From a bacterium (GTDB taxonomy: Bacteria > Patescibacteriota > Minisyncoccia > Minisyncoccales > DG-74-3), in contig JAUVYE010000001.1 of the NCBI GenBank assembly GCA_030603245.1, forward strand, positions 1,418-65,417: 64,000 nt of DNA. The letters are read 5' to 3'. Below are positions 2,207 to 19,102 of this stretch, piece after piece. Within the stretch, counting starts at the first letter, position 1. Each line of letters opens with the position of its first letter. A model generated the notes under the pieces. The model searched no databases. It had not been told where the DNA came from and worked only from the letters and a program-made list of their open reading frames with translations. The position numbers and the translations under genes are program-made.

Positions 2207-4188
2207 TAGCCAAACAAACTATATTTTACAATTAAAGGCGCAAACACAGTAGCTACTAAAGACATAACAGTGATTAAGGTATTGATAGTGGGACCAGCTG
2301 TGTCTTTAAACGGATCTCCAACAGTATCGCCAATAACAGCTGCTATATGAGCTTTAGAACCTTTTCCTCCCAAATTTCCATCTTCAATATATTTCTTGGC
2401 ATTGTCCCAAGCTCCTCCTGCATTTGACATGAAAAGAGCAAAAACTATTCCGCTAACAATACTCCCCCCTAAAAATCCTCCTAAAGCATATTTCCCCAAC
2501 AAAAAGCCAACAGCTAATGGGAAAGCTATTGACAAAAAGCCAGGCAAAACTAATTCCTTTAAAGCTCCCTTAGTTGCAATATCTACACATCTTGCATAGT
2601 CTGGTTTTGCTTTTCCTTCCATTAAGCCTGGAATTTCTCTAAACTGCCTTCTAACTTCTTCAATCATACGAGCTGCATTTTTTTGAACTCCTAAAATTAA
2701 AAGAGCAGAAAGAAATGGCGGTGCCATGGCTCCAATAAATAAACCAACCATAACATCAGATTTCATTAAATTTAAACTCTTAATATCAACCAATTCAGAA
2801 TAAGCTGCAAAAATAGAAAGAACAGTTAAAGCCGCAGCTCCAATAGCAAAACCTTTAGTAATTGCTTTTGCAGTGTTGCCGGCTGCATCTAATTTATCAG
2901 CTATTTTAACCACTTCTTCTCCCAAACCTGATTGTTCAGCAATTCCTTTAGCATTATCAACAATAGGACCGTAAGCATCAGTTGAAATTATCATTCCAAC
3001 AATAGACAACATGCCTACAGCTGAAATTGAAACCCCATAAACACCAACCAAATTAAAAGAAATTAGAATTGCAGCACAAACTCCAATTATTGGAGGTAAA
3101 ATACTCATTAAGCCATAAGAAAAGCCAGACAAAATATTCATGGCTGCTCCGGTTTTTGAAGCCTCAGCGATTTTTAGAACTGGTGCTTTATCAATTGAAG
3201 TAAAGTAGTCAGTCGTAATTCCAATAATGACTCCGGCAATTAGTCCTGAAATAGTAGCTAAGAAAATTTTGAATCCTTGATCTTCAAGACCTAAATAATT
3301 AATCAGTAAAAATGCCAAAATAGCAAAGAAAAAGCAAGTTAAATAAGTTCCATTATTAAGAGCTGCTCCTGGATCCTGGTTTTTAGTTCTAACAAAAAAA
3401 GTTCCGATTAAAGAAGCAAATATTCCAATTGCTCCAATTAAAAGAGGTAAAATAATAAAATCTATTCCCAAAGTTCTTCCCAAAATCATTGATGCCACCA
3501 CACAAGCAATGTAAGAATCAATTAAGTCAGCGCCTGTTCCAGCAACATCACCAACATTATCTCCTACATTATCAGCAATAACAGCTGGGTTTCTAGGATC
3601 ATCTTCTGGAATTCCTAATTCTACCTTTCCAACCAAGTCTGCTCCAATATCAGCAGTTTTAGTAAAAATTCCTCCGCCTGCCTTAGCAAAAAGGGCTAAA
3701 GCTGAGGCTCCAAAGCTGAAACCCAATATAATATCTAATCCCTCTGGTCCAAAAATAAAATACAGAGTGCTTATTGCCAGTAATGCCATCCCAACAATTG
3801 ATAATCCCATAATTGCTCCGCCATAAAAAGCAACCTTAAAAGCATCATCTAAACTTCCTCGAGCAGCATTAGCAGTTATAACATTCGCCCTTACGGCAGC
3901 TGCCATGCCTAAAAAACTAGCTAATGCTGTACAAACTGCTCCTAAAACATAAGCTACAGCAACTTGAAAACTCAACAAAATCCAAAGTAAAACAGCCATG
4001 ATTAAAACAAAAACAGCTAAGGTTTGATTTTGTCTTTTTAAATAGGCATTAGATCCTTCCCTAATAGCATCCGCAATCTCAATCATTTTTTCTGTCCCTT
4101 TTTCCTGTTTAACTAAGTTAGAAAAGAGATAAAGTGCGGCTAAGATTGAAATAATACCAGAGATTGGAGCAATTATTAGTGCTTGCAT
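2206..4188 (-). CDS. hppA: Membrane-bound proton-translocating pyrophosphatase (H+-PPase)
   Basis: Polytopic 660-aa protein with conserved H+-PPase motifs ([43 protein letters not shown]). Confidence 0.9.
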
Positions 4189-4201
4189 ATTTTTTGTTTT
4201 T

Positions 4202-5404
4202 TTATTTATTTTTTATTTTTTTCTTTTTTGATTTCTTTTTAGGAGTTGTTTCTTTTTTTTCCTCTTTTTTTTCTTCCTCCTGTTTTTCTTCCAACTCTAC
4301 CTCAGAACCCCTAACATCAATTTTCCAGCCCGTAAGTTTGGCAGCCAATCTTACATTTTGACCGTCTTTACCAATAGCTAAAGATAATTGATCTTCTGGA
4401 ACAACACAAAGAACTTTATTTTTGGGTAAAACTTTTACCTCTAAAACCTTGGCTGGAGATAAAGCATTAGCAATAAATTTTTCTGGGTCTTCTGACCACT
4501 CAATAATATCAATTTTCTCTCCGCCCAACTCATTGATCACTGCCTGAACTCTTGTTCCCCTTTGACCTACAGATGCTCCAATCGGATCAATTTCTTCAAT
4601 AGTGGAAGCAACCGCAATTTTAGTTCGAGAACCAGGCTCTCGAGCAATAGACTTTATCTCAACCTGACCAGCTGCAATCTCAGGAACCTCTAATTCAAAC
4701 AGTTTTGAAATTAATTTAGGATAAGCTCTTGATAAAAAAATTTTAGGACCCTTGCTCGTATCTTCCACCTTAAGAACAAAAACTTTTAATCTTTGACCAG
4801 GCCGATAAAACTCTCCAGGAACTTGCTCTTCTCTAATTAAAATTCCCAAGGCCTTACCAATATCAAAAAAAACATTTCTGCCTTCAATACGTTGAACAAT
4901 TCCAGAAACAATTTCTCCTTGCTTATCTTGATATTCTTCAAAAATACTTTCTCGTTCTGCCTCTCTTAATTTCTGCATTATTACTTGTTTAGCAGTTTGG
5001 GCAGCAATCCGACCATAATCTTTTTGGGCTTTAAGAGAAATTTTAAGCTCGTCGCCAGGTTTAATCTTTTTCTTTATTTTCTTTGCTTCATCAATCATAA
5101 TATGTTTTTCTGGATTAAACTTGATTTTCTTGTCTTCCTCTTCTTTTACTTTTTCGCTTTTAATCTCTTCTAATTCTTCCTCCGAATAAATCATACTTTC
5201 ATCAACCACTATTTTAATTTGTAAAAACTTAACTTTACCTGATTCTGAATCAAGTTTGGCTTGGATAATTTGTCCCCTTTTTCCGTAGTCTTTTTTATAA
5301 GCAGCAGCAATTGCCTGTTCAATGGTTTCTAAAACCTTTTCTGAAGAAATACCTTTTTCTTCAGCAATCTGCTTAACTGCTGATGCAAAATCTTTTAAAT
5401 CCAT
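4202..5404 (-). CDS. nusA: Transcription termination/antitermination factor NusA with Lys-rich C-terminal tail
   Basis: NusA N-domain, S1 and tandem KH-like regions (GQRLKVFVLKV..., IGKDGQNVRLAAKLTGWKIDV). Confidence 0.85.
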   Translation of the reverse strand: MDLKDFASAVKQIAEEKGISSEKVLETIEQAIAAAYKKDYGKRGQIIQAKLDSESGKVKFLQIKIVVDESMIYSEEELEEIKSEKVKEEEDKKIKFNPEKHIMIDEAKKIKKKIKPGDELKISLKAQKDYGRIAAQTAKQVIMQKLREAERESIFEEYQDKQGEIVSGIVQRIEGRNVFFDIGKALGILIREEQVPGEFYRPGQRLKVFVLKVEDTSKGPKIFLSRAYPKLISKLFELEVPEIAAGQVEIKSIAREPGSRTKIAVASTIEEIDPIGASVGQRGTRVQAVINELGGEKIDIIEWSEDPEKFIANALSPAKVLEVKVLPKNKVLCVVPEDQLSLAIGKDGQNVRLAAKLTGWKIDVRGSEVELEEKQEEEKKEEKKETTPKKKSKKKKIKNK

Positions 5405-5422
5405 GTTGTTTTTAATAAAAGC

Positions 5423-5440
5423 GTCCGTTTTTTAACGGAC
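5423..5440 (-). terminator. Putative intrinsic terminator downstream of plsY-like gene
   Basis: Perfect 7-bp stem GTCCGTT/AACGGAC with a 4-nt loop. On the minus strand it is followed by a U-rich stretch, and it sits between the plsY stop and the nusA start. Confidence 0.35.
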
Positions 5441-5462
5441 CTGCCTTTAAGTATAACAAAGT

Positions 5463-6116
5463 CTATTTACTTGTCAACTTTTTAACTATTTTCTTTATTC
5501 TAAAGTCCTTAGTAACATCATCATCAAAAATTAAACGATTTCTGAATAAACGACACTTGTCTTTAGATTGTTTTAATTCCTGTATTGGACTTAAACGCTT
5601 TAAGAAAATAGGAAGAAGAGATAAAACAGCAAACAACCTAATATATGATAAACCAAGCTTATCACTATAATAAATTACTGTAGCTAAAGCCACAATAGTA
5701 CCAATACAAAGATTCCAAATTATTCCTAATGAAATAAGAGGAATTAAGAAAAGTTTTAAAAACTCAGGATTAAAAGCCAAAAGCGCTCCCCCAAAAGTTC
5801 CTATGCCCCTGCCTCCATTAAAACTTAAAAACAAAGACCAATTATGTCCTATCACAACTGCTACTCCGCATAAAACCTGAACTAAAGCCGGCTCTCCATA
5901 ATGTTGAGCTATTTTGACTGAAATATATCCTTTTAAAATATCAAAGAGGCCGGTAAAAAATCCTTGCAAAAACCCTATATTCTTGAAAACATTAGAGCCA
6001 GATGTTTTTCTCCATCCAATTTCTAAAATGTTTTTTCTGGTTGAAACTTTAGTAAAAATATATCCAAAAGGAATAGAGCCTAAAATATAAGATAAGAATA
6101 TATATAAAATACTCAT
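5463..6116 (-). CDS. plsY: Glycerol-3-phosphate acyltransferase PlsY-family membrane protein
   Basis: N-terminal (Y)ILGSIPFGYIFTK motif and a polytopic 217-aa membrane protein typical of PlsY (acyl-phosphate:G3P acyltransferase). Confidence 0.6.
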   Translation of the reverse strand: MSILYIFLSYILGSIPFGYIFTKVSTRKNILEIGWRKTSGSNVFKNIGFLQGFFTGLFDILKGYISVKIAQHYGEPALVQVLCGVAVVIGHNWSLFLSFNGGRGIGTFGGALLAFNPEFLKLFLIPLISLGIIWNLCIGTIVALATVIYYSDKLGLSYIRLFAVLSLLPIFLKRLSPIQELKQSKDKCRLFRNRLIFDDDVTKDFRIKKIVKKLTSK

Positions 6117-6895
6117 TTTTTCTTTAATTTTAATCTTCCCTTTTCTTTAACAGCTTTTACAAACTGTTTAACTAATTTTTTAACATCTTTGGTTTTTTCA
6201 GCCGCTGTTCCAACAAAAATACAATCAGCACCTGCCTCAATAACCTTACCTGCCTGAGCTGGGGTTCTGATCCCGCCCCCAACAATATAAACCATATCAC
6301 CAATTGTTTTTCTTACAGCTTTTATTATTTCAACAGGAATATGATCAAAAGCAGCTGAACCAGCATCAGTAAAAACAAATCTTTTACCTGATAATCTGGC
6401 AGCTAAAGCTAAAGCAGCAGCAATGTTTGGTTTGTTTCTGGGAACCAAATTCGCATCTCCTACCCAGCCAGCTGTTCCTCCTGGATCAAACAAAATATAA
6501 CCCAAAGGCAATGGCTCTATGCCTAATTTCTGAATAATAGGAGCTGAAAGCGTTTGAACTTCAGAAATCCAATAAGGATTCCGAGAATTTAATAAACTCA
6601 TAAATAAAATGGCGTCAGCATAACGAGAAATAGTAGCAATGTTGCCTGGAAATAAGACTATTGGAATATCTGTTTTCTGCTTAATCCCCTTAATTACTGT
6701 GTCTAAAAGCTCACCCTGAGCTTGAGTACTACCTCCCACACTTAAAAAATCAACCCCTGCTTCAACCGCAGCTAAAGCAGTGTTTATTGCTTTTTGAGTA
6801 GAAGTATAGTCGCAAGGGTCAATCAAAATTGACAGTAAAGCACCCTCTTTCTTGATTTTTTCTTTAATATATTTTTCAACTTTTCCTATTTTCAT
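6113..6895 (-). CDS. Geranylgeranylglyceryl phosphate synthase family (GGGPS/PcrB-like prenyl-glycerol-phosphate ether synthase)
   Basis: TIM-barrel GGGPS/PcrB features: C-terminal VGGGIRTPAQAGKVIEAGADCIFVGTAAE and central FDPGGTAG. Overlaps the neighbouring polyprenyl synthase by 4 bp (operon). Confidence 0.75.
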   Translation of the reverse strand: MKIGKVEKYIKEKIKKEGALLSILIDPCDYTSTQKAINTALAAVEAGVDFLSVGGSTQAQGELLDTVIKGIKQKTDIPIVLFPGNIATISRYADAILFMSLLNSRNPYWISEVQTLSAPIIQKLGIEPLPLGYILFDPGGTAGWVGDANLVPRNKPNIAAALALAARLSGKRFVFTDAGSAAFDHIPVEIIKAVRKTIGDMVYIVGGGIRTPAQAGKVIEAGADCIFVGTAAEKTKDVKKLVKQFVKAVKEKGRLKLKKK

Positions 6896-7983
6896 ATTTT
6901 TCTTTCAATCAAATAATTAACAAATTCGTTCAACCTTTCTTTGGCAGGAGAAGCAACTAACAATTTATCTGTTTCAGCCCAAGCTTGTTTCATAATCTCT
7001 CTAGCTCTTTTTTGGGCATATTCTACACTGCCATATTTTTTTATTATTTCTATTGCCTCTGTTCTTTCTTTTGTATCATCGGTGTGTTTGTTCAAAATTT
7101 CTATCAACCTTTTTCTATCTTCTTCTGTTGCTTTTTCCAGAGTATGAATAACCATTAAAGTTCTTTTTCCCTCAGTTATATCCATTCCAAGCCCACCCTT
7201 TCCTTTAGCAAATTTCTCTCCCACAATATCAAGAATATCGTCTTGAATCTGAAAAGCAACACCCATGGCTTCAGCAACCTTGCCAGCTGCTTCAGCCAAT
7301 TCATCGCTCGCACCAGCTAAAATAACAGCTAATTTAGCTGACATTCTAGAAAGACAACCTGTTTTAAAAGCGCACATTTGCAAATACTCTTCTTCTTTTA
7401 TATCTTCTACACCTCCCCGATGCCAATAAATATCAGTTCCCTGGCCCAAACTTAAATTAATCATTTCCTGAACATATATTTCGTAAGCTTTAACTAAAAT
7501 TTCTGGTTTAAATTTATCTCTATTCTTTGATAATGCTAATAAGGGGAAAAAATAAAGAAAATTACCAGCATTTAAAGCAATATCAATGCCAAAAATCTTA
7601 TGAAGAACAGTCTTGCCCCTTCTTAACTCCCCGTCATCTTCAATATCATCAATAATAATTGTTCCGTTATGAATCAATTCTGGAATAATAACAATGTCTT
7701 TAATTTTTTCCATGTCTCCATTAACGGCCTGGGTAATCAAAAGGAATAAAATTGGACGCCATCTTTTTCCTCCACGACTAATAAAGTCCCAGGTAGGCCT
7801 TACTAAAGATTTATCAGCTGCATCTAGGCTGTAAGAGTAGCGGGGAACACCAAAGGTGAACTCAAGCCACTTTTTATCTATATTTTTGGGAATGTATTTT
7901 TCGATAATTCCATCAATCTCGGGCTTCATTTTCTCTAAATACTCTATAAAGTTTCCTTTTTTTATTTCGTCTGAATTAGACAT
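6892..7983 (-). CDS. Polyprenyl (geranylgeranyl) diphosphate synthase
   Basis: Both Asp-rich motifs of trans-isoprenyl diphosphate synthases are present: DDIEDDGELRRGK (first DDxxD) and FQIQDDILD (second). Confidence 0.8.
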   Translation of the reverse strand: MSNSDEIKKGNFIEYLEKMKPEIDGIIEKYIPKNIDKKWLEFTFGVPRYSYSLDAADKSLVRPTWDFISRGGKRWRPILFLLITQAVNGDMEKIKDIVIIPELIHNGTIIIDDIEDDGELRRGKTVLHKIFGIDIALNAGNFLYFFPLLALSKNRDKFKPEILVKAYEIYVQEMINLSLGQGTDIYWHRGGVEDIKEEEYLQMCAFKTGCLSRMSAKLAVILAGASDELAEAAGKVAEAMGVAFQIQDDILDIVGEKFAKGKGGLGMDITEGKRTLMVIHTLEKATEEDRKRLIEILNKHTDDTKERTEAIEIIKKYGSVEYAQKRAREIMKQAWAETDKLLVASPAKERLNEFVNYLIERKI

Positions 7984-8077
7984 AGGTTTAATTTTGAATT
8001 TTTTATTTTATAATTAATAATTATACTTTGACAAAAGTTTACTTGCAATTGTTAAAATTTTGTTTATCATCTAACTT

Positions 8078-8872
8078 ATGAATGCTTGGATAGAAATAAT
8101 TCGTCCTGCCACGTCATTATTAGCTGCTATAGGAGCTGTGGTCGGTGCTGTAATTGCTGGAGTTCCTTTTTCTATTGATTTTGTTTATGTGTTTTTAGCT
8201 GTTTGGTTTGTTACTGGGGCTGGCATGGTAATTAATGATTATTATGATATAGAAATAGACAGAATTAATGCTCCTCATCGGCCATTGCCCAGTGGCAGAA
8301 TATCAAGAAAAAATGCTTTGTCCTATAGTGTTTTCTTGTTTTGTTTAGGCCTTGTTTTTTCCGCTTTCTTAAATATTTATTGTTTTGTTCTTGTGCTTTT
8401 TAATGGCTTGATTGAATTCTTTTACGCTAAAATCTATAAAAAATGGTGGCTGTTCGGAAATATACTGGTTAGCTGGTTAGCAGGCTCTGTTTTCATTTTT
8501 GGGGGTCTGATTACTTTTGACTTTAGACTAATCTGGATTGTATCCTTATTAGCATTTTTGTCAAACATGGGAAGAGAAATTTTCAAGTCGATTGAGGATG
8601 TAAGAGGAGATAAAAAAATGAAGTTAGATACCCTTCCCGTATCTTCGGGCACTAAAACAGCCAAAGAAATTGCCCAGGGATTTATTGCTTCAGCTATTTT
8701 ATTTTCCAATCTTCCCTATTTATCAGGGCTATTAAGGGCAAGCTATCTCAAAATTGCTGCTTTTGGAAATGCTATCTTTTTTTATTCTCTTTATGAAAAA
8801 CCCAATAAAATTAAATTAATGACCAAGATAGCAATGCTAATTATTGTCTTGGCTATCCTATTTAGTTTTTAA
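8078..8872 (+). CDS. UbiA-family prenyltransferase, digeranylgeranylglyceryl phosphate synthase (DGGGPS)-like
   Basis: UbiA signature NDYYDIEIDRINAPHRPLPSGRIS and a polytopic 264-aa membrane protein. Sits in the GGGPS/GGPPS/GGR context. Confidence 0.7.
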   Translation: MNAWIEIIRPATSLLAAIGAVVGAVIAGVPFSIDFVYVFLAVWFVTGAGMVINDYYDIEIDRINAPHRPLPSGRISRKNALSYSVFLFCLGLVFSAFLNIYCFVLVLFNGLIEFFYAKIYKKWWLFGNILVSWLAGSVFIFGGLITFDFRLIWIVSLLAFLSNMGREIFKSIEDVRGDKKMKLDTLPVSSGTKTAKEIAQGFIASAILFSNLPYLSGLLRASYLKIAAFGNAIFFYSLYEKPNKIKLMTKIAMLIIVLAILFSF

Positions 8873-10006
8873 TTATCCAAAGCTTGTTCCGCTTTTACGT
8901 AAAATAAAAAATAACTTTGTAATCTTAAAAGCGTTTCTTCTTAATTCTGGTTTAGAAACAAGATTAAAAACACCAGAAAGGGTTTCAAACGCAGATAACC
9001 CTTTTTTGTTTAGAGCTTCTACTAATTCATCTAAAACTGAATTAGAAAGAGAATATAATATTTTTTGAGCAACGATTAAATCACGACTCAAAAACGGTAA
9101 AGACTTAATTTTCTTTTCAAAAACATGAGGCGTATTAGAAAGAATACATTGAGCAGCAATCTTGGCTGAAACCATGGCATTGTTTATTCCTCCTCCTAAA
9201 ACTGGATCCACAAGAGCAGCAGCATCTCCTACTAAAAAAACCTTATCTTTATACAATTTTATTTTAGCTCCGCCCCAGGTAATGGTGCCACTTCTATTTT
9301 CTAAAAGCTTATAATTACCAAATTCTGGTTTTACAAACTTCTCCATAAAATATTTAAATCTTTGGTCAAGATTGCTCTTCCCTCCTAAACCAATATTGGC
9401 TCTGTTTTTAGATTTAGGAAATATCCAGACATAACCCTCTGGAAATCTTTCTTTATCAAAATACATCTTTATTACTGATACTGGTATTTCTTTCTCCAAT
9501 TCAACCAAATATTCATAAGTGGGCAAAACTTCAATCTTTTCTTTTGGAAAAAGCTTTGTTCTAACAATTGAAAGGGGACCATCAGCCCCAATTAAATATT
9601 CACTTTGAAAAACCTCTTCTTGGGCTGTTTTAACTTTCCAAAAACCACCTCCTTTTTCAATATTAACCACTTTAGTATTAAGCTTAATCTCAGCTTTACA
9701 TTTTTGAGCTAGAGCTTTTTCAAAAGCCGGTCTATTGATGATATATCCCAATTTCTCACCTTTAAAACTGGCTTTCCTTCCTGAAGCAATGTAAACCTCA
9801 ATTGTATCAATAGTTGTAGAAATCCAGGCAGGATTTGGTTCAATGCCATTTCTTTCCAATGATTCCTGACTAATGCCCTCAGCGCATTGAACTGGTATTC
9901 CAATCTCTTTTTCCTTTTCCAAAATTAAAGCATCCTTTAAATATATTCCAGCTGTTAAACCAGCTGGACCTGCTCCAATAATGATTGTTTTAAATACATT
10001 CTTCAT
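8873..10006 (-). CDS. FAD-dependent geranylgeranyl reductase family protein
   Basis: N-terminal Rossmann FAD motif IIIGAGPAGLTAG and overall geranylgeranyl reductase-family layout (377 aa). Confidence 0.7.
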   Translation of the reverse strand: MKNVFKTIIIGAGPAGLTAGIYLKDALILEKEKEIGIPVQCAEGISQESLERNGIEPNPAWISTTIDTIEVYIASGRKASFKGEKLGYIINRPAFEKALAQKCKAEIKLNTKVVNIEKGGGFWKVKTAQEEVFQSEYLIGADGPLSIVRTKLFPKEKIEVLPTYEYLVELEKEIPVSVIKMYFDKERFPEGYVWIFPKSKNRANIGLGGKSNLDQRFKYFMEKFVKPEFGNYKLLENRSGTITWGGAKIKLYKDKVFLVGDAAALVDPVLGGGINNAMVSAKIAAQCILSNTPHVFEKKIKSLPFLSRDLIVAQKILYSLSNSVLDELVEALNKKGLSAFETLSGVFNLVSKPELRRNAFKITKLFFILRKSGTSFG

Positions 10007-10638
10007 TTATTTTTCCCTCTAAAATACCATTTAGGTCTGGCTCCTTTTAGAACTGGGATAAAGTGGGGCCATTGCTTAATAAAAATAGGTGTGGCTATTA
10101 AAACGCAAAGTAAAAAATATTCTGGAACTAAAAAATAACCGATTAAAGGCAAGAAAATATTTCCCATAAATTGACCGAAAAAAAACGTCTGAGTAGCTAA
10201 AACAAACAAAAGACAACTCAAAGCCCAGGGCAAAAATAACCACTTAAAGTTTAGGGTCATCAAAACTCCGGCTAAACATGCTTGGGCTTTGCCGCCAGAA
10301 AACTTATTGTCTTTAATCTTAAAATAAAGAGAAAAACAATGACCTAAAACTACTCCAAAACCAGCTAAGCTAATTGCCCAAACAAGATTATAATTTAAAC
10401 AAGTAAATTTTTGAGGAATTAAAACAGACAAAGCTCCTTTTCCTGTATCTACAAAAACAGTTAAAAGAAATAATAAAGGTTTTCCTGTTATTCGCATCAC
10501 ATTCATTGCTCCTACATTTTTAGATTCTTGCTTTCTAACATCTTTATTAACAGATTCTTTAACAATCAAATAAGCTGTGGGAAAAGAACCCAAAACATAG
10601 GCAAGGATAAAAAATAAAATTAAATAAATATTGAACAT
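10003..10638 (-). CDS. Second, divergent PlsY-family membrane protein
   Basis: LGSFPTAYLIVK N-terminal motif and a (S)KNVGAMNVMRITGK region resembling the PlsY GSGNxGATNxxR motif. 211-aa polytopic protein. Confidence 0.5.
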   Translation of the reverse strand: MFNIYLILFFILAYVLGSFPTAYLIVKESVNKDVRKQESKNVGAMNVMRITGKPLLFLLTVFVDTGKGALSVLIPQKFTCLNYNLVWAISLAGFGVVLGHCFSLYFKIKDNKFSGGKAQACLAGVLMTLNFKWLFLPWALSCLLFVLATQTFFFGQFMGNIFLPLIGYFLVPEYFLLCVLIATPIFIKQWPHFIPVLKGARPKWYFRGKNK

Positions 10639-10643
10639 ATTTT

Positions 10644-12317
10644 TTAGTGGTTATTAATAACGGTCCAGGAAACAATTAAACTCCCAGAATCCATGTCCAA
10701 AGAGCTGGAATTGGTAAAAGAAACTTCGGCCTGAATCTCTTTAAGTTTATTTTTCAATTTCTTTGCTTCTTCTAAATTCTCACAATGAGTAATAACTATT
10801 CTGATTTTTCTGCCCTGTTTTCGATACTTTCTGCTTCTTAGTTTTATTTCCCTGAATATTGCGTTTGAAACATCTTTTGTCATTAGGTGAATTCCATTCT
10901 TAATTATTTTTCCTCTCTTAATGCCGAACAATGGTTGAGCTCCAATTCTTTGTAATCTTTTTGCCCACCTAACTTGAGAGTATGAAATTTTGCTTATTTT
11001 TTTTATTTTCTCAAGTTTGGACAAAAACAAATAAGTATGAATATGAGAAATTGTTTTGTTTAATTCTTTAATAACCTCTTGGATTTCTCTTTGTTCTTTA
11101 ATCAGTTCAATTGCTCTTAAAATTAAAAGGGCTTGGCCAGAACTAATATTAAAAGAGTTTAAAACATAAATTTTTGAAGGATCTTCTAATTTTGACCTTA
11201 CTTCCATGGCTTGATTATAGTCTGAAGAATCAGTAATGATTAAAACTTTTTTAAAGCTTTTGAGTTGTTCTTTATAAACTTCAAGAAAATTTTGAGACCT
11301 AACTATCTTAATTTTGTATCTTTCAATAATTTTTGCTGTTAAATCAGCTGTTTGATCAGTAATAATGCCAATAGAAACATCTTTTAATGAATCTTCCCCA
11401 ACTGCTTCTTTGGCCATATCTTCAATCCTCATATTTTCAATTCGACCAGCCTGTCTTATAAATTCTTTAACCTCGTCTATTAAATCAGTGTGAATATGAA
11501 TTTTCATTTTATTTTTAACCGTAACTATGTCTAAAGAATTGCCCAATTTTGACAATTTATCTTTAATCTCTTTTTCGCTAAATTTTGGATTCTTAATCAA
11601 AGCCACAATTTCATAACGGTTAGAAATAGTTTGAATAAACCTTTTTGCTTTTTCTGATGGTTTTTCTTTCCCCAACTCACGGATCGTTTTTATGTCTTTC
11701 TCTCCCTCAACTTCCAAAACTTCTAGAAAACTTTCAAGAATGATTAAAAAACCAAGGCCTCCAGCATCAACCACATTTGCTTTTTTCAAAATCTCCAGTT
11801 TTTCCTGAGTTTCTAACAATGCTTGATGAGCTTCTCCAGCTGCTTTTTCAAGAATAACAGCAATGTCTTTTTCGTTCTCAACCTGTTTTTCAAGACTTTG
11901 AGCAGTAGCTTTCATTACATCTAAAATAGTTCCCTCTTTTGGATTTTGAATGCTTTTCTCAGCCCTTTCAAACCCTTGCTTAAAAGCTTGGGTTAATTTA
12001 TGGGCATTAATTGATTTTTCGTTTCCAAAAACAGGCAAAAATCCAGCTAAAAAGCCGGTATAAATTATACCAGCGTTTCCTTGGGCTGCGATCATGGCTC
12101 CATCTAAAATAGCTTCTGAAATTTCGCCCAAATTATTAAAATCCCTGTTTTCAATTTGTTGTTTTATTCCTAATAAGGTATAAGCCAGGTTGGTTCCTGT
12201 ATCTTGGTCTGGCACTGGGAAAACATTAATCTTATTAATTTCTTGTTTTTCTTTCTCAACCCTTTCCCAGGAAAAAAGCATCATCTTTTTCAATTCCCTT
12301 TGAGTCAAATAATCCAT
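10644..12317 (-). CDS. DAK2-domain fatty acid kinase FakA / YloV-like protein
   Basis: Dak2 motif VFPVPDQDTGTN near the N-terminus and ~557-aa length, typical of the FakA/YloV family. Confidence 0.7.
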   Translation of the reverse strand: MDYLTQRELKKMMLFSWERVEKEKQEINKINVFPVPDQDTGTNLAYTLLGIKQQIENRDFNNLGEISEAILDGAMIAAQGNAGIIYTGFLAGFLPVFGNEKSINAHKLTQAFKQGFERAEKSIQNPKEGTILDVMKATAQSLEKQVENEKDIAVILEKAAGEAHQALLETQEKLEILKKANVVDAGGLGFLIILESFLEVLEVEGEKDIKTIRELGKEKPSEKAKRFIQTISNRYEIVALIKNPKFSEKEIKDKLSKLGNSLDIVTVKNKMKIHIHTDLIDEVKEFIRQAGRIENMRIEDMAKEAVGEDSLKDVSIGIITDQTADLTAKIIERYKIKIVRSQNFLEVYKEQLKSFKKVLIITDSSDYNQAMEVRSKLEDPSKIYVLNSFNISSGQALLILRAIELIKEQREIQEVIKELNKTISHIHTYLFLSKLEKIKKISKISYSQVRWAKRLQRIGAQPLFGIKRGKIIKNGIHLMTKDVSNAIFREIKLRSRKYRKQGRKIRIVITHCENLEEAKKLKNKLKEIQAEVSFTNSSSLDMDSGSLIVSWTVINNH

Positions 12318-12325
12318 ACAATGGT

Positions 12326-12979
12326 TTAGCGAATTTTTTCCTCAAACTCTTTTAAGATTTTAGCTGCTATGTCTTTACCCCCCAAACCAAAAGCAACACC
12401 AACAGCTATTACTATAGCGCCCACAAAACCAACAAAAATAGTTAAGATCAATGTAGGAGCTATCTGAAGCTGGTAAAGAATAGCTAAGGTAGCTAGGCTC
12501 CAAATTATCCAACGAATTATTCTTCCTAAAAACCGGGAGTAAGTTATTTTTTCTTCCTCTAAAACAGCAAACATAATCTTTTGAGAAAAATCAGCCAGAA
12601 AAACAGCAATAATAAAAATTAAACAAGCAACAAAAATATTAGGGAAATAACTGATTGTCTCACCTAAAAGCTGACTAAATTGAGGAAGCCCAATAATCTC
12701 AACTGAAGTCATTAAAAAGAGAATGACAAAAAAGCATCTAACTATATTTCCAAAAAACTGCACAGCATTAAAACGAATATCTGTCTCAAATAAACTTTCT
12801 TCAAAATTCAATCTTTTCAAAGCCTGATTCAAACGGATTTTGTCTAAGAATCGAACAACAATATTACCAGCCCACTTAGAAACTAAAAGACCAGTCAGAA
12901 AAACTAAGATTGCCCATAAAAGCTGGGGGAGATTTTCAACAAAGCTTTCTAAAAATAAGTTTAAAAAATCTTGTGCCAT
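12326..12979 (-). CDS. Hypothetical polytopic membrane protein (possible conserved-TM-helix / MscS-related)
   Basis: Several predicted TM helices and no recognisable catalytic motif. Confidence 0.3.
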   Translation of the reverse strand: MAQDFLNLFLESFVENLPQLLWAILVFLTGLLVSKWAGNIVVRFLDKIRLNQALKRLNFEESLFETDIRFNAVQFFGNIVRCFFVILFLMTSVEIIGLPQFSQLLGETISYFPNIFVACLIFIIAVFLADFSQKIMFAVLEEEKITYSRFLGRIIRWIIWSLATLAILYQLQIAPTLILTIFVGFVGAIVIAVGVAFGLGGKDIAAKILKEFEEKIR

Positions 12980-12994
12980 ATTTATTATTTTACC

Positions 12995-13552
12995 CTACCA
13001 TTTATTCTTAGACAAGCCCATTCTAAATCCTATTTGAGTAGCAGCAATGTGCAATACAAAAGTTAAAACTAAAAGCATTGTCCAAACTTTAAAATCAATT
13101 TTAATCTCAGAAAAAAGATTTAAGAAAAAACCTGCTCCAATCACATAATTAATCTGATCAAAAGGCATAAATTTTGCTCCTGGTTTTAAGTCTAAGCGTC
13201 TTTTAATAAAAGCAAAGAACAAGTCCCCAAAAACTGCGCCAAAAACCATTAAAAGGCCAAAATACAGGCCTATTTCTTGATAATTTAAAAGACTGATTTC
13301 TCTGGTTGAAACACAATTATTAAAAAGCCATTTTTGAAGAAAAAGAATTAAAATGCCAGCAATTGGACCCAAAATAAGACCACGCCAAGTTTTATGATTA
13401 CCCAATAAAGGACGCCCCTTAAACTCTTTTCCATTATCAATTGGTCGGTCAAAACAATTAAAAACCCTTAACGACGCGGTTAAAGAGGGGATCATATTAG
13501 TAAAGTAAGCTGGGAGAAAAAAATAAAAACAAGATAGGATAAATTTAAACAT
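12995..13552 (-). CDS. CDP-archaeol synthase (CarS)-like / CdsA-like CTP:lipid cytidylyltransferase, short form
   Basis: 185-aa polytopic protein with GNHKTWRGL and GDLFFAFIKRRL motifs resembling the K-x-W-x-G and GDL..S..KR signatures of CdsA/CarS cytidylyltransferases. Its length fits CarS rather than the ~270-aa bacterial CdsA. Confidence 0.5.
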   Translation of the reverse strand: MFKFILSCFYFFLPAYFTNMIPSLTASLRVFNCFDRPIDNGKEFKGRPLLGNHKTWRGLILGPIAGILILFLQKWLFNNCVSTREISLLNYQEIGLYFGLLMVFGAVFGDLFFAFIKRRLDLKPGAKFMPFDQINYVIGAGFFLNLFSEIKIDFKVWTMLLVLTFVLHIAATQIGFRMGLSKNKW

Positions 13553-13596
13553 AAAATTTCTTGAAATTAATATTTTCTAAAGGTAAAATAAAAAAG

Positions 13597-14277
13597 ATGA
13601 AAGCAGACTTACACGTTCATACTTGCTATTCTTACGATAGTATATCTTTGCCGCAAGAGATAGTCAAAGCTGCTCTTAAAAATGGTTTAAACTGCATTGC
13701 TATTTGTGATCATGGAGAAATAAAAGGTGCTCTTGAGGCCATTAAATTTGCTTTTAACAAACCAATTTTAATTATTCCTGGGATTGAAATAAGAAGTAAA
13801 CAGGGAGATATTTTGGGCTTGAATATTAGAAAAATAATTCCTAATGGGCTTTCAGTAAAGCAAACAATTAAACAAATTAAAAAAGCAGGAGGCTTTGTTG
13901 TTATTCCTCATCCTTTTGGATTTAATTGCTCTTTTAAAGGAATATTGGAAGATTTTATTGACTCAATCGATGCAGTAGAAGTTTTAAATACTAATATTTT
14001 TAAAAAAGACAATCAAAAAGCTTTAAAGTTTGCTAAAAAACATAATTTAGCCTTTATAGCTAGTTCTGATGCCCATAGTCCAGAATTTGTAGGTAGGGGA
14101 TATCTTGAAATTCCAGGTGACCAACTTTCTGTCCAACAAATTTTTCAACAAATTAAAAATAAAAATGTTAGAATCATTGGTCGAGAAACTAATATTTTTG
14201 AAAAGGGAATTGCTTTTTTAAAAAGAAATTTATGTAAAATTGAATATTATGTTAGCAGAAAAAAGAAAAAGCTTTAA
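13597..14277 (+). CDS. PHP-domain metal-dependent phosphoesterase (ORF may start at 13561)
   Basis: MKADLHVHTCYSYDS N-terminal His motif plus downstream His/Asp positions typical of the PHP family. Confidence 0.65.
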   Translation: MKADLHVHTCYSYDSISLPQEIVKAALKNGLNCIAICDHGEIKGALEAIKFAFNKPILIIPGIEIRSKQGDILGLNIRKIIPNGLSVKQTIKQIKKAGGFVVIPHPFGFNCSFKGILEDFIDSIDAVEVLNTNIFKKDNQKALKFAKKHNLAFIASSDAHSPEFVGRGYLEIPGDQLSVQQIFQQIKNKNVRIIGRETNIFEKGIAFLKRNLCKIEYYVSRKKKKL

Positions 14278-14848
14278 AAAGCTTGAAAACATGGTTGGGA
14301 AATTCTTTTCTAAGTTCTTAAATCCTAATCAGTATTCTTATTTGGCAATCTTAATGGCTTTATTGTGTCTTAGGTTTTTAATAAAAAACAATTTAAAGAT
14401 TGCTTTGATTTTTCTATTCACAGCTTCTTTTTTAGATTTTATAGATGGAGCAGTGGCCAGAAAAACCAATACTGCTTCTAAAAAAGGAGCTTATTTAGAC
14501 ACAATTTTAGATCGCTATGTTGAGGGAATGGTTTTGCTTGGATTTTTGTTTTTACCTTTGCCCAAAATATTTTTACCTGCCCATGTTTGGATATATCTGG
14601 CTTTATTTGGTTCTTTAATGACAACTTATGCTAAAGCTGCTGGAAAAGAAAAGGGAATACTACAAACAGAATTAAAAAAAGGAGTGATTGGTAGGGGAGA
14701 AAGAATGATTTTAGAGTTTTTAGCTATATTTTTAGGAATATTTAATCTCCAGTGGACATTGTATTTAATTATTGTCCTATCTGTCCTATCTAATCTGACT
14801 GCTGTCCAAAGAATTTGTCTTATTCTGCATACCAAGCAACAGCCATAG
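14240..14848 (+). CDS. CDP-alcohol phosphatidyltransferase family protein (polar head-group transferase)
   Basis: Perfect signature D-x2-D-G-x2-A-R-x8-G-x3-D-x3-D in DFIDGAVARKTNTASKKGAYLDTILD. Membrane protein. Confidence 0.8.
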   Translation: MNIMLAEKRKSFKKLENMVGKFFSKFLNPNQYSYLAILMALLCLRFLIKNNLKIALIFLFTASFLDFIDGAVARKTNTASKKGAYLDTILDRYVEGMVLLGFLFLPLPKIFLPAHVWIYLALFGSLMTTYAKAAGKEKGILQTELKKGVIGRGERMILEFLAIFLGIFNLQWTLYLIIVLSVLSNLTAVQRICLILHTKQQP

Positions 14849-15701
14849 ATCCGGGCCCAACAATGCTTCCTATTATCTCATCAAGTAGATTTGCTGCAAC
14901 TATTTCTGTATTTTCCATATCTTTTTGAATCAAGTCTTGTAGTTTTTGACAAGCTTCAGGTGCTAAAGCATGAGAAATAAATATTTGAATTCTTTTACCC
15001 TCTTTTCTGTATTTTCTTGATTTTGACTCTATTTCCTTAAAAAGCGCTTCAGCTACATCTTTTACTCCTATTTTAATGCTTATTGGTTTAAGCACTCCTT
15101 TTTTCATGCCTAACAAGGGCCTTAACCCAATATTAGACATTTTACGAATCCAATTAGCTATAATTGAAGATATTCTGCCTGATGCTTCTAACCATTTAGG
15201 ATCTTTAAGCGCAACATAAAGAAAAGTTTTTGGAATAAGTTGTTCAAGTTCTTTTACAATTTCTTCTATTGGCTTATCTTGATTCACAAGATCAATTGCT
15301 TTTAAAACAATCAACCCCTCTCCAGCAGCAGCACTAAGCGTATCAACAATGAAAACTTTATTCTCTTGTTCTTCTGGTAAAAAACTTTTTGCCTGAATAG
15401 CTGAATTATATGTTCCTGACAGTTTTGAGGTAACAGTAATACAAATAAGCTTTTCGAATTTTTCTAATTGTTTCTTATAAAGATCCAAGTAAGCTTTTGG
15501 AGATGGTTGAGAGGTTTTACAGAAAACCTTTATTCCTCTCTTATCTGCTTCTTTCATTCTGTGAAAAACAGTCTCGCCTGGCAGACCTTCTATTTCTGGG
15601 GGCCATTCTACCTTAAGAGGAACCACTGCTATTTGATGTTTTTCTATAATATCTGGAGTTAAATCAGCCCCTTCGTCAATAACTAAACCAATTTTATTCA
15701 T
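14820..15701 (-). CDS. DegV-family fatty-acid-binding protein (FakB-like)
   Basis: DegV fold signature: N-terminal IGLVIDEGADL... and ~290 aa. Confidence 0.8.
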   Translation of the reverse strand: MNKIGLVIDEGADLTPDIIEKHQIAVVPLKVEWPPEIEGLPGETVFHRMKEADKRGIKVFCKTSQPSPKAYLDLYKKQLEKFEKLICITVTSKLSGTYNSAIQAKSFLPEEQENKVFIVDTLSAAAGEGLIVLKAIDLVNQDKPIEEIVKELEQLIPKTFLYVALKDPKWLEASGRISSIIANWIRKMSNIGLRPLLGMKKGVLKPISIKIGVKDVAEALFKEIESKSRKYRKEGKRIQIFISHALAPEACQKLQDLIQKDMENTEIVAANLLDEIIGSIVGPGSMAVAWYAE

Positions 15702-15731
15702 AGTTTTTTAATTATTAATTATTATTTATTG

Positions 15732-15803
15732 TGGACCCGAGGGGAGTTGAACCCCTGACCCCTGCAATGCGAGTGCAGTGCTCTGCCACTGAGCTACAGG
15801 CCC
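15732..15803 (-). tRNA. tRNA-Ala (anticodon CGC)
   Basis: 72-nt cloverleaf on the minus strand with a G3:U70 pair in the acceptor stem (the Ala identity element) and anticodon loop CTCGCAT. No CCA is encoded. Confidence 0.8.
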
Positions 15804-15805
15804 TG

Positions 15806-17254
15806 CTACTTTACCCAGTATTTGTCTTTAGTCATTTTATCCTGTTTCATTTCAACATTTTCAACCTCTTTTTTAGCTTTTTGGGCAACAAGTTTTAATT
15901 CTTTTTCCGACAATTTACCTAACTTTTTAATTTCTTTTTCTAAAAATTCTTTTTTATTCTTGTTTGGCTCTTCTAGGACATAACCTAATAAGACATTCAA
16001 AATTTGTCCTATTTGAGGTCCTGGTTTAATATTCAGGATTTTCATTATATCATTACCTGAAACTTTTAACATTTTGACTGAAATTGGATCTTGAGACACT
16101 TTTTCAATAACATACTCTAAATGTCTTAATTTATATGGTTTGGCCTTGGGACAACCAGAACCAATACGATCAGCCATTCTTAATTGAATCAACTCCTCTA
16201 TATTTTCTAAACCAACATTTCTTACTAATTTCCTAACTGAACTTTGTCCTACCTCATCTGGATGATAATAAAAAAGATGATATCTTACTAATTTAGTAAT
16301 TTTTTTAATATCTTTTTCAGAGAATTTTAAACGTTTTAAAATCTGCTTTGTCATTTTTGCGCCCTCTATTTCATGGGAATAAAAAGTAGCTTCCAATCCT
16401 TTACCTCTTTTTGTTTTGGGCTTTCCAATATCATGAAATAAAGCAGCTAATCTAACATATTTGTTAAAGTTTTTTTGGGCTGCATATTCTAAAGAACGCA
16501 AATAATGATCATAACAATCATAAATATGATGTTTATTCTGAGCTATGTTATAGCCCTGCTCTAATTCAGGAACAATATATTTTAAAAGATTAAGCTTTCT
16601 TAAAAGCTCAATACCTTTGGCTGCGCTTTCAGACATAATGATTTTTAAAAACTCATCTCTTATCCTTTCTTGAGAAATGTGTTTAAGTAAAGCAGAATTC
16701 TTTTTGATTGCTTGACCTGTTTTTTCTTCAATTTTAAAGTTTAAACTGGTAGCAAATCTTACTGCTCTTATCATTCTTAAAGCGTCTTCTGAAAATCTTT
16801 TTTCTGGATTACCAACCGCTCTAATTGTTTGCTTTTTTAAATCTTTTTGGCCCTCAAAAGGATCAATAACCTTTAATTCACTATCCATTGCCATGGCATT
16901 AATAGTAAAATCTCTTCGAGCTAAATCTTGTTTAAGACTCTGAGCAAACTTAACTATATCAGGATGGCGTTTGTCACTATATTTTGCTTCAGAACGATAA
17001 GTGGTAATTTCAATTTCTTTTAATTTAGGATTCTTACTTTTGGTCTGGACAGTAACGGTTAAAAACTTATTTTCGCAGAAACTTTGTGGGAATATTTTTT
17101 GAATCTTTTTTGGCTTAGCATCAGTAGTAACATCCCAATCATTTGGTTCTTTTTCTATTAAAAAATCCCGAACACAGCCCCCAACAATATAAGCTTCAAA
17201 CCCAGCTTTTTTTAGTTTAGAAACAATAGATTGTACTTGTTTGGGAATTAACAT
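15806..17254 (-). CDS. cca: CCA-adding enzyme / tRNA nucleotidyltransferase with HD domain
   Basis: N-terminal polymerase-beta-type nucleotidyltransferase motif GGCVRDFLI...DWDV and a downstream HD-domain His/Asp pattern. Confidence 0.8.
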   Translation of the reverse strand: MLIPKQVQSIVSKLKKAGFEAYIVGGCVRDFLIEKEPNDWDVTTDAKPKKIQKIFPQSFCENKFLTVTVQTKSKNPKLKEIEITTYRSEAKYSDKRHPDIVKFAQSLKQDLARRDFTINAMAMDSELKVIDPFEGQKDLKKQTIRAVGNPEKRFSEDALRMIRAVRFATSLNFKIEEKTGQAIKKNSALLKHISQERIRDEFLKIIMSESAAKGIELLRKLNLLKYIVPELEQGYNIAQNKHHIYDCYDHYLRSLEYAAQKNFNKYVRLAALFHDIGKPKTKRGKGLEATFYSHEIEGAKMTKQILKRLKFSEKDIKKITKLVRYHLFYYHPDEVGQSSVRKLVRNVGLENIEELIQLRMADRIGSGCPKAKPYKLRHLEYVIEKVSQDPISVKMLKVSGNDIMKILNIKPGPQIGQILNVLLGYVLEEPNKNKKEFLEKEIKKLGKLSEKELKLVAQKAKKEVENVEMKQDKMTKDKYWVK

Positions 17255-17255
17255 A

Positions 17256-17326
17256 CCCCGTAGTAGAATTTTGACAAATTATTATTTATTGCGTTGCCCC
17301 GCAACAGTCAAAATTTCACTACGGGG
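17256..17326. repeat. Long near-perfect inverted repeat (20-bp arms, 31-nt spacer containing a nested GC hairpin) abutting the cca start codon
   Basis: Arm CCCCGTAGTAGAATTTTGAC pairs with GTCAAAATTTCACTACGGGG (one dinucleotide swap). The spacer contains GTTGCCCCGCAAC. The element ends 2 nt from the minus-strand AUG of cca. Confidence 0.5.
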
Positions 17327-17349
17327 CATAATTTTATTCTAACTCCAAA

Positions 17350-17365
17350 CCTTGCTTTTTTCAAT
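17350..17365. promoter_or_regulatory. Copy 1 of the repeated 16-mer CCTTGCTTTTTTCAAT (on minus strand TTGAAA -35-like, 17-nt spacer, TAGAAT -10-like)
   Basis: An identical 16-mer occurs again at 18961-18976. Both copies lie upstream of minus-strand transcription units. Confidence 0.35.
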
Positions 17366-17439
17366 TATTTCAATTTATTTATTAATAAAAAAATAGGTCG
17401 AATATTGTTTGTTATTTCGACCTTATTTTGGATGGAGCT

Positions 17440-18150: not shown

Positions 18151-18155
18151 TGAAA

Positions 18156-18890: not shown

Positions 18891-18960
18891 ATCTTTCTCC
18901 TCTTTTTTTGTAAAGGTCTATTTTCAGTCTAAGTATTTTAAAATTTTTGTCAATTTCAAG

Positions 18961-18976
18961 CCTTGCTTTTTTCAAT
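18961..18976. promoter_or_regulatory. Copy 2 of the repeated 16-mer CCTTGCTTTTTTCAAT, upstream of the J-domain/vWA operon
   Basis: Exact repeat of 17350-17365. Confidence 0.35.
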
Positions 18977-19014
18977 CAATCTGATACAATATTTTAATAA
19001 TGTTTATCTATTAT

Positions 19015-19090: not shown

Positions 19091-19102
19091 AAAAAGCGTA
19101 AA

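Follow-up and report, generated by a model that had tools for sequence, protein, structure and literature searches.

The locus described here occupies positions 5463 to 15701 of a 64-kb stretch of contig JAUVYE010000001.1 (the whole stretch is hereafter called the window). It carries genes of two membrane-lipid chemistries, a fatty acid module of the FakA/FakB/PlsY kind and a cassette of archaeal-type enzymes for isoprenoid ether lipids. A preliminary description of this DNA counted thirteen contiguous genes in the interval; we count 12, and nusA (4202 to 5404), the next gene, lies just outside. The open reading frames (ORFs) that it listed are all present. Families were assigned with Pfam, with the curated cutoffs of NCBIfam and with matches to structures in the Protein Data Bank (PDB), and the locus was compared with ~160 related loci, which carry L numbers below. 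The genes are as follows (scores in bits).

5463 to 6116, minus strand: PlsY1-type paralogue (PF02660, 100.6; TIGR00023, 96.9, below the cutoff of 137.2)
6113 to 6895, minus strand: predicted geranylgeranylglyceryl phosphate synthase (GGGPS) of archaeal group II, for the first ether bond (TIGR01769, NF003198, PDB 4mm1)
6892 to 7983, minus strand: trans-isoprenyl diphosphate synthase (IPPS), presumed geranylgeranyl diphosphate (GGPP) synthase, the chain length being presumed (PF00348, 218.6; DDIED and DDILD)
8078 to 8872, plus strand: UbiA prenyltransferase resembling digeranylgeranylglyceryl phosphate synthase (DGGGPS), for the predicted second ether bond (NF009521; PDB 6m31)
8873 to 10006, minus strand: FAD-dependent geranylgeranyl reductase family (GGR) protein (TIGR02032, 188.5, above 158.8; GGR catalytic domain PF22578)
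10003 to 10638, minus strand: PlsY2-type paralogue (PF02660, 109.6; TIGR00023, 91.9, below 137.2)
10644 to 12317, minus strand: FakA-like fatty acid kinase (Pfam Dak2, 115.6; FakA-like_M, 52.4; C-terminal DegV, 54.9)
12326 to 12979, minus strand: conserved membrane protein with two PF05552 transmembrane (TM) helix repeats (PF05552, 59.2; NF033912, 68.9, below 100)
12995 to 13552, minus strand: predicted CarS-family CTP:lipid-phosphate cytidylyltransferase, "DQxN" subtype of the Candidate Phyla Radiation (CPR) (PF01864, 100.5, full length)
13561 to 14277, plus strand: PHP-domain metallophosphoesterase (PF02811, PF13263; NF038032, 83.4, above 80)
14240 to 14848, plus strand: CDP-alcohol phosphatidyltransferase of the inositol-phosphate-transferring type, resembling archaetidylinositol phosphate and phosphatidylinositol phosphate synthases (AIPS/PIPS-like; PF01066, 65)
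14820 to 15701, minus strand: DegV/FakB-like fatty acid-binding protein (PF02645, 181.4; TIGR00762, 188.3, above 99.7; PDB matches to DegV and FakB1)

Source-named homologues of the CarS-like protein, GGGPS, and other proteins of the locus belong to Patescibacteria, Parcubacteria, Nealsonbacteria, or Paceibacterales. Therefore, the organism belongs to the Paceibacterota/Parcubacteria group of the CPR. Bacterial genes flank the block on both sides, with ClpP, trigger factor, H+-pyrophosphatase and NusA on one and CCA-adding enzyme, tRNAs and PNPase on the other, and the G+C content is even across it (0.31 to 0.34; ~0.33 throughout). Start/stop overlaps of 4 bp join PlsY2 to GGR and run in series from IPPS through GGGPS to PlsY1, GGR overlapping the stop codon of PlsY2 and PlsY1 that of GGGPS. 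DGGGPS, the sole plus-strand gene of the cassette, abuts the 3′ end of GGR with its own 3′ end, and the end of the PHP gene overlaps the start of the CDP-alcohol transferase gene. A terminator-like hairpin (5440 to 5423) follows PlsY1. A promoter scan of 4000 to 17500 gave 46 sites versus 49.8 in shuffles, that is, no excess.

The arrangement is not that of one archaeal pathway standing beside a fatty acid module. It is a conserved CPR phospholipid operon that already contains a CarS-family enzyme, and in one sub-clade a DPANN-related cassette sits inside it. The comparison of loci carries this finding. A CarS-like alignment, scanned against 185,579 species genomes, found relatives in 352, and the best 80 loci were kept; nearly all of these are Patescibacteria, together with three archaeal (DPANN-type) metagenome-assembled genomes (MAGs) at 41 to 42% identity. 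When 82 loci were searched with 15 window proteins, the genes of the fatty acid and head-group steps were found in many of them (PF05552 protein in 59, DegV in 57, FakA in 56, PlsY in 40, PHP in 39, and CDP-alcohol transferase in 31), and those of the cassette in few (GGR in 8, IPPS in 6, and GGGPS and DGGGPS in 4 each). The same picture emerged from 28 CPR-type CarS loci flanked on either side by 7 kb or more of sequence, in which FakA, the PF05552 protein, and DegV each occur in 24, PlsY in 20 to 21, PHP in 11, and the CDP-alcohol transferase in 10; GGGPS and DGGGPS, counted when within 7 to 10 kb, occur in 1 each. Thus the CarS-like subtype is linked to fatty acid activation and acylation genes in ~86% of well-flanked loci and to ether-bond genes in ~4%; the association of GGGPS and DGGGPS with it holds in the window locus. 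On this comparison, PlsY-PlsY-FakA-membrane protein-CarS-like / PHP-CDP-alcohol transferase / DegV is the ancestral unit, which occurs throughout Paceibacterota. The preliminary description had assigned the CarS-like and CDP-alcohol transferase genes to the ether route and had named neither the PF05552 membrane protein nor the PHP phosphoesterase among its lipid genes. The CarS-like, CDP-alcohol transferase, and PHP genes belong instead to the Paceibacterota Fak/PlsY operon, and the archaeal-type addition shrinks to 6113 to 10006.

That addition, GGR-DGGGPS-IPPS-GGGPS, takes up exactly the space between PlsY2 and PlsY1. In L029, the order FakA-PlsY2-PlsY1-NusA is the same, only 36 bp separate the PlsY genes, and the cassette is absent; the cassette of the window fills precisely this gap and overlaps PlsY at both ends. 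A metagenome scan with GGGPS recovered ~35 CPR-type contigs with NusA-PlsY1-GGGPS-IPPS-(DGGGPS)-GGR-PlsY2-FakA-...-DegV or parts of it, and more than 12 independent contigs repeat the entire NusA-to-DegV order; a gene order 92 to 98% identical is present in the independent assemblies L001, L003, and L087. Cassette-bearing contigs and MAGs include SDBU01000003.1 (358 kb), Ga0247841_10000006 (584 kb), ERZ23486233 scaffold_43 (196 kb), and LJNG01 (Parcubacteria DG_74_3), and the complete genomes CP179887.1 and CP179889.1 have the CarS-like gene and are cassette-free. On the CPR-type contigs, the identity of GGGPS to the window protein follows that of NusA, FakA, and CarS (Spearman 0.83, 0.83, and 0.96, respectively), so the cassette and the operon have been passed on together in a sub-clade whose NusA is at least ~70% identical. 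The genes are co-conserved in this CPR clade, and a lack of co-conservation, which the preliminary description had named as refuting its reading, is not seen. The broader group (over 20 loci with NusA at ~60%) is without the cassette, as are L007 and L029 inside the range. On these comparisons, it is a presence/absence block confined to one sub-clade. The set also forms a contiguous unit in a different CPR lineage: in L085 (Nealsonbacteria), GGR-UbiA-IPPS-GGGPS stands beside HMG-CoA reductase and mevalonate kinase genes, and its UbiA and GGR match the archaeal enzymes much more weakly.

The four cassette proteins fall in the families that the preliminary description had proposed. The 6113 to 6895 product exceeds both NCBIfam GGGPS cutoffs (TIGR01769, 200.7 versus 161.55; NF003198, 300.6 versus 247) and scores 28.5 against a cutoff of 260 on the heptaprenylglyceryl phosphate (HepGP) synthase model NF003197. 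Its best structural match is the group IIa GGGPS of Methanothermobacter thermautotrophicus (4mm1, 232 bits), and no PcrB structure matched at E ≤ 1e-5 in the PDB search. On these model scores and structure matches, the PcrB alternative was rejected in favor of archaeal group II. The protein keeps the Mg-binding Asp (LIDP), the Ser of GGST, and the group-II Thr in the β8 loop (VGT). A Tyr/Tyr/Glu triad has been proposed to set the stereospecificity and catalysis of GGGPS (review PMC9385802); here, the first Tyr is kept and the Y-x-E position reads F-T-D. F-[TL]-D replaces Y-x-E across nearly all of the CPR GGGPS clade and in 5/5 Aenigmarchaeota sequences, and a few CPR sequences have Y-T-D; L083 and L084 were among the loci considered. 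We considered the F-x-D variant as a CPR-specific switch to glycerol-3-phosphate and dropped the idea; the variant is shared by Aenigmarchaeota, whose locus has a glycerol-1-phosphate (G1P) dehydrogenase gene two genes away from that of GGGPS.

The isoprenyl diphosphate synthase has both of the Asp-rich motifs reported for it. Its best NCBIfam models are IdsA (225) and GGPP synthase (181), both below cutoff. Five positions before the first DDxxD it has Gly rather than an aromatic residue, as does a 53%-identical Aenigmarchaeota enzyme; a C20 product is assumed. The UbiA protein scores 235.3 on the DGGGPS model NF009521 (below the equivalog cutoff of 296), far above ChlG (91.9), heme o synthase (64), and UbiA (41). 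The Methanocaldococcus jannaschii DGGGPS structure 6m31 (167.5 bits) likewise surpasses chlorophyll synthase (52.8 bits). The Asp-rich motifs NDYYDIEID and EDVRGD are present and align to those of the M. jannaschii enzyme. A chlorophyll- or quinone-type UbiA was therefore rejected on the NCBIfam and PDB scores. The best structure for the reductase is the Thermoplasma acidophilum digeranylgeranylglycerophospholipid reductase (3oz2, 113 bits).

Both ether-bond enzymes have their closest named relatives outside CPR in Aenigmarchaeota. The window GGGPS is 66 to 72% identical to named CPR proteins and 63 to 64% identical to named Aenigmarchaeota proteins. In a neighbor-joining tree (a rapid distance tree rather than a tested phylogeny), all CPR-context sequences form one clade that is sister to Aenigmarchaeota. 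For DGGGPS, an exhaustive HMMER search returned a single 50%-cluster at 64% identity and then relatives at no more than 47%, among which the two named ones outside CPR are from Aenigmarchaeota (42 to 43%). Thus, both enzymes point to a DPANN-like partner in a putative inter-domain transfer. The transfer can be argued to be old, because the G+C content is even and the genes overlap.

No G1P dehydrogenase was found among the ~55 window ORFs scanned with Pfam (other ORFs of at least 100 aa), nor within 10 kb of the ~35 CPR-type GGGPS loci. A search seeded with the Aenigmarchaeota dehydrogenase, which reaches close relatives only, returned no CPR-labeled protein and none on known CPR contigs. Since the enzyme was found neither in the window nor within 10 kb in the related loci, the "archaeal-type" stereochemistry is only presumed. 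The same Pfam scan of the 64 kb returned no type II fatty acid synthase (FAS II), in line with the preliminary description, and no acyl carrier protein, PlsX, PlsC, CdsA, glycerol-3-phosphate dehydrogenase, mevalonate (MVA) or methylerythritol phosphate (MEP) pathway, or inositol-phosphate synthase genes.

The protein encoded at 12995 to 13552 is of the CarS family, as one of the options first offered had it. It matches PF01864 over its full length (100.5 bits versus 31.8 bits for PF01148 over a partial stretch), and its sole PDB match is Aeropyrum pernix ApCarS (5guf, 36.7 bits). A truncated CdsA was rejected on these grounds. The score on the NCBIfam CarS model is below cutoff (NF003114, 132.1 versus 148), and the signature is altered. 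ApCarS and its Nanoarchaeota relatives have G-D-x3-S-F-x-K-R-R and D-Q-x-D (DQ[IL]D in Nanoarchaeota), and the window protein has GDLFFAFIKRR, with A for S, and FDQIN, with N for the last D. The N variant is found in 119/120 of the closest database homologues, 107 of which also have the A, and in 82 fetched loci. A canonical D/S-type CarS is found in eight fetched loci, three of them archaeal, with FakA nearby in none; in CPR-labeled genomes, no Fak or ether genes were found near a canonical CarS. Archaeal CarS is reported to prefer digeranylgeranylglyceryl phosphate strongly over phosphatidic acid and not to rescue an Escherichia coli cdsA mutant (review PMC9385802). Because of the altered signature and the linkage to fatty acid rather than ether-bond genes, the CPR subtype is most simply read as activating the product of the Fak/PlsY route. 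Its nearest archaeal relatives (L066, L071, and L079; 41 to 42%) are Nanoarchaeota-type DPANN MAGs, and the nearest named relatives of GGGPS and DGGGPS are from Aenigmarchaeota. Therefore, the histories of the CarS-like gene and of the cassette seem separate.

The signature of the CDP-alcohol transferase, described earlier as perfect, is intact (DGAVARKTNTASKKGAYLDTILD; DG(x2)AR(x8)G(x3)D(x3)D). The best NCBIfam model is archaetidylinositol phosphate synthase (130.1, below 180), and the best structures are IPCT/DIPPS (4mnd) and phosphatidylinositol phosphate synthases. The PHP phosphoesterase is a candidate lipid-inositol-phosphate phosphatase. The pair of PHP (CehA-McbA-type) and CDP-alcohol transferase genes stands beside the CarS-like gene in 31 to 39 of the 82 loci.

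The fatty acid module had been described as a FakA-like protein, a DegV/FakB protein and two PlsY-family genes, and Pfam domains bear out all four. FakA structures 7rm7 and 8vip match the kinase at ~121 bits and 7w7h at 131 bits, and its NCBIfam scores are below cutoff (FakA_VfrB, 158.6 versus 975; YloV, 266.7 versus 396). The DegV/FakB-like protein is likewise below the FakB1 equivalog cutoff (103.7 versus 350). Motif 1 of PlsY1 reads GWRKTSGSN, versus GSGNVGATN in Aquifex aeolicus PlsY; K stands at PlsY R45, R at PlsY K104, and the His is kept, with GHNWS...GGRG in the motif 3 region. PlsY2 has ESKNVGAMN, keeps the Arg, His, and GGK, and has GHCFS...GGKA in its motif 3 region. Three PlsY types occur in Paceibacterota operons, a canonical one (GSGNxGATN), [GE][ST]KN (PlsY2), and GW[RK]K[TNS]SGSN (PlsY1); the last motif is kept in 51/51 orthologues, and its gene usually adjoins NusA. 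The window locus has the two non-canonical types only, and the canonical GSGN paralogue occurs in other Paceibacterota loci. The PF05552 ("mechanosensitive channel conserved TM helix") protein of 217 aa lies between FakA and the CarS-like gene, a position it holds in 59 of the 82 loci and in 24 of the 28 well-flanked ones, and its linkage to the lipid operon is as tight as that of FakA.

That the fatty acids are host-derived, as initially proposed, is an assumption, and in relatives the genes next to the cluster include those for thiolase, FabG-like, and carboxylase proteins. In L014 (12972 to 20059), thiolase-DUF362-FabG-like short-chain dehydrogenase/reductase-UbiA-GGR-IPPS-NUDIX follows FakA. 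In L118 (3667 to 11457), biotin carboxylase-biotin ligase-carboxyltransferase precedes GGR-IPPS-GGGPS-PlsY-NusA.

We propose that the locus is a membrane-lipid assembly unit in two layers, through which the cell could produce acyl-ester and isoprenoid-ether inositol phospholipids in parallel (probability roughly 0.6). The genes, their families and key motifs, the operon-like coupling, the co-inheritance in the clade, and the archaeal affinity of both ether-bond enzymes are observations; from them we infer all enzymatic activities, the prenyl chain length, the glycerol-phosphate stereoisomer, and the inositol head group. In the core layer, widespread in Paceibacterota, FakA and DegV/FakB would turn free fatty acid into acyl-phosphate, with which the PlsY-family paralogues would acylate glycerol phosphate to lyso-phosphatidate or phosphatidate. 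The CPR-specific CarS-family enzyme would convert this to a CDP-activated lipid, the AIPS/PIPS-like transferase would add inositol phosphate, and the overlapping PHP phosphoesterase would probably remove the phosphate. In the second layer (6113 to 10006), the isoprenyl diphosphate synthase would supply prenyl chains, GGGPS and DGGGPS would form the two ether bonds of di-O-prenylglyceryl phosphate, and GGR would saturate the chains. The di-O-prenylglyceryl phosphate could then enter the shared line of CDP activation, inositol-phosphate transfer, and dephosphorylation, the CarS-like enzyme accepting the ether lipid, the acyl lipid, or both. A mixed-membrane potential, as the preliminary description envisaged, is plausible in that the family calls hold and the genes are co-inherited; the altered CarS signature and the undetected G1P dehydrogenase count against it. 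A stronger version is that Paceibacterota recruited the DQxN CarS subtype as a general lipid activator in place of CdsA and that the sub-clade then added the DPANN-derived cassette, giving a true mixed membrane through one CDP/inositol line, with lyso- or mono-ether intermediates as conceivable substrates of the non-canonical PlsY paralogues; we regard this as possible, albeit doubtful.

Several points weigh against the two-layer proposal. The G1P dehydrogenase was found neither in the window nor within 10 kb of CPR-type GGGPS loci, and the 64-kb window also lacks MVA/MEP, inositol-1-phosphate synthase, PlsC, and CdsA genes. The CarS-like protein has two signature residues changed and scores below the NCBIfam CarS cutoff, and one CarS-type enzyme serving both lipid streams would be unusual given the discrimination of archaeal CarS (PMC9385802). 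In GGGPS, F-x-D takes the place of a Y-x-E said to be strictly conserved, though the variant is common to Aenigmarchaeota. Neither PlsY paralogue of the window has the canonical GSGN motif. Furthermore, only acylglycerol lipids were found in a CPR-enriched sample (PMC7242380).

In a rival explanation, the two routes stay separate. The genes for the CarS-like enzyme, the CDP-alcohol transferase, and the PHP phosphoesterase would then serve the fatty acid route only, the CarS-like enzyme being a CdsA substitute that makes CDP-diacylglycerol, and the membrane would be acyl-based; the cassette would yield a minor or non-bilayer product, either unactivated prenylglyceryl phosphate or a dephosphorylated ether, resembling the PcrB products of Bacillus. 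The tracking of the CPR-type CarS-like gene with FakA, DegV, and PlsY (24/28) and not with GGGPS/DGGGPS (1/28) fits this explanation, as do the replacement of D by N and of S by A throughout the family in the CarS/CdsA signature region, the detection of acylglycerol lipids only in the CPR-enriched sample, and the failure to find a G1P dehydrogenase in the window, within 10 kb of CPR-type GGGPS loci, or in the seeded search. However, the cassette has a reductase and a prenyl diphosphate synthase of its own, is translationally coupled to PlsY, and has been co-inherited over NusA divergence to ~70%, features that fit a function in the bulk membrane. No alternative to the CarS-like enzyme, whether canonical CarS or CdsA, was seen within the 64 kb. 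We consider non-convergence rather unlikely on the whole.

At the other extreme, the CarS-like protein could be a true CDP-archaeol synthase throughout Paceibacterota, with GGGPS and DGGGPS encoded elsewhere in cassette-free genomes, ether lipids widespread, and Fak/PlsY merely syntenic. The Pfam CarS-like family, ApCarS as the sole solved relative, the UbiA-GGR-IPPS sets that lie a few kb from FakA without GGGPS in L014, L032, and L044, and the L085 cassette placed elsewhere, beside MVA genes, would agree with this. We nevertheless judge it improbable. GGGPS/DGGGPS lie within 10 kb in only 3 of the best 80 loci (352 species genomes having a relative), the alternative UbiA proteins of L014 and L085 match DGGGPS models weakly (42 to 90 bits), and surveys of hundreds of CPR genomes describe no complete lipid pathway and no ether route (PMC7242380). 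An assembly or binning artefact joining archaeal DNA to a bacterial contig might be suspected from the 63 to 64% identity of GGGPS to Aenigmarchaeota proteins. This is effectively refuted: bacterial genes with 4-bp overlaps stand on both sides of the cassette, the same junctions recur in many independent assemblies (NCBI, ENA, JGI, and Logan), the G+C is uniform, and the identity of the cassette co-varies with that of the flanking genes.

Previously, active GGGPS and DGGGPS have been demonstrated in Ca. Cloacimonetes, which lack CarS and G1P dehydrogenase, and close homologues of both were noted together "in a genome of Ca. Parcubacteria" (Villanueva et al. 2021; PMC7852524); that genome may be DG_74_3, our L005. 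Parcubacteria also appear in the distribution table of Coleman et al. (2019). Probst et al. described Nealsonbacteria with PlsY and PlsC and without PlsX and questioned the source of acyl-phosphate (PMC7242380); the FakA/FakB pair beside PlsY would supply it. Our literature search found no paper on a CarS-family gene, FakA/FakB, or a Fak/PlsY-embedded cassette in CPR, which may still be published.

With the conserved FakA/FakB-PlsY-CarS-like-CDP-alcohol transferase operon, a large group of CPR bacteria would have a concrete way of building phospholipid out of free fatty acids. The general description of CPR bacteria is that they cannot make membrane lipids of their own. The locus bears on this view and also on the "lipid divide" that separates Bacteria from Archaea, a central problem of early cell evolution. 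The sub-clade holds more archaeal-type ether-lipid genes than Cloacimonetes, including a CarS-family gene, in the same operon, and is in this respect a more complete mixed-membrane candidate. The DPANN affinity points to an exchange of lipid genes between two ultra-small, co-occurring radiations. A CarS accepting acyl lipids, if true, would blur one enzymatic gatekeeper of the divide.

Elsewhere in the window, Pfam shows the replication genes dnaA and dnaN and type IV secretion, type IV pilus, cell-wall, translation, and two-component-system genes. A type IV secretion-like block is suggested at 27584 to 40378 by a run of large plus-strand ORFs (880, 1263, and 600 aa among others), most of them without a Pfam match, among which are those of a TraG/VirB4-like ATPase and a PrgI-family protein. 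The listed start of a type IV secretion system pilin ORF (19013 to 19561) overlaps a tRNA (19015 to 19087), so its true start lies further downstream. The dnaA and dnaN genes lie at 42 to 45 kb (42185 to 44879) beside a dip in G+C (0.26). The cumulative GC-skew minimum and a switch of gene strand fall at ~19 to 20 kb (region 18000 to 20000) and do not coincide with dnaA.

Among known systems, the PcrB of Bacillales (heptaprenylglyceryl phosphate synthase) shares PF01884 and the TIM-barrel prenyltransferase fold with the GGGPS of this locus. Unlike PcrB, the latter scores 28.5 on the HepGP model as against 300 and 200 on the GGGPS models, has no PcrB among its PDB matches, and is accompanied by a DGGGPS partner, which PcrB systems lack. 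The archaeal archaetidylinositol pathway (GGPP synthase, GGGPS, DGGGPS, CarS, archaetidylinositol phosphate synthase, phosphatase, and GGR) has a homologue here for every step except the G1P dehydrogenase, and 4mm1, 6m31, 5guf, and 3oz2 are the best structural matches. The locus departs from that pathway in the CarS-like signature (DQxN and A-F-x-K-R-R versus DQxD and S-F-x-K-R-R), in having several proteins below NCBIfam equivalog cutoffs, in the undetected G1P dehydrogenase, and in the linkage of the CarS-like gene to fatty acid genes across CPR.

Incorporation of exogenous fatty acids by FakA/FakB and PlsY is known from Staphylococcus aureus and related Firmicutes. The locus has the three-domain FakA, the DegV/FakB binding protein, and the PlsY-family acyl-phosphate acyltransferase in common with it. 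The locus differs from the Firmicutes system in several ways. None of its proteins comes near the equivalog cutoff for FakA, FakB1, or PlsY, there are two or three copies of PlsY with an altered motif 1, no PlsX or PlsC is nearby, and activation would fall to a CarS-family enzyme and not to CdsA.

A further parallel is with the GGGPS-DGGGPS pairs of Cloacimonetes and other FCB bacteria (PMC7852524). In both cases, GGGPS and DGGGPS are co-localized and accompanied by a polyprenyl synthase and GGR, no G1P dehydrogenase was detected, and a mixed membrane is proposed. Unlike in Cloacimonetes, the host is a CPR bacterium with a reduced genome, and the enzymes, whose activities here are predicted, group with DPANN (Aenigmarchaeota) and not with TACK. 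The cassette lies inside a FakA/FakB/PlsY operon instead of alongside full FAS II and PlsX, and this operon includes the CarS-family gene that Cloacimonetes are without.

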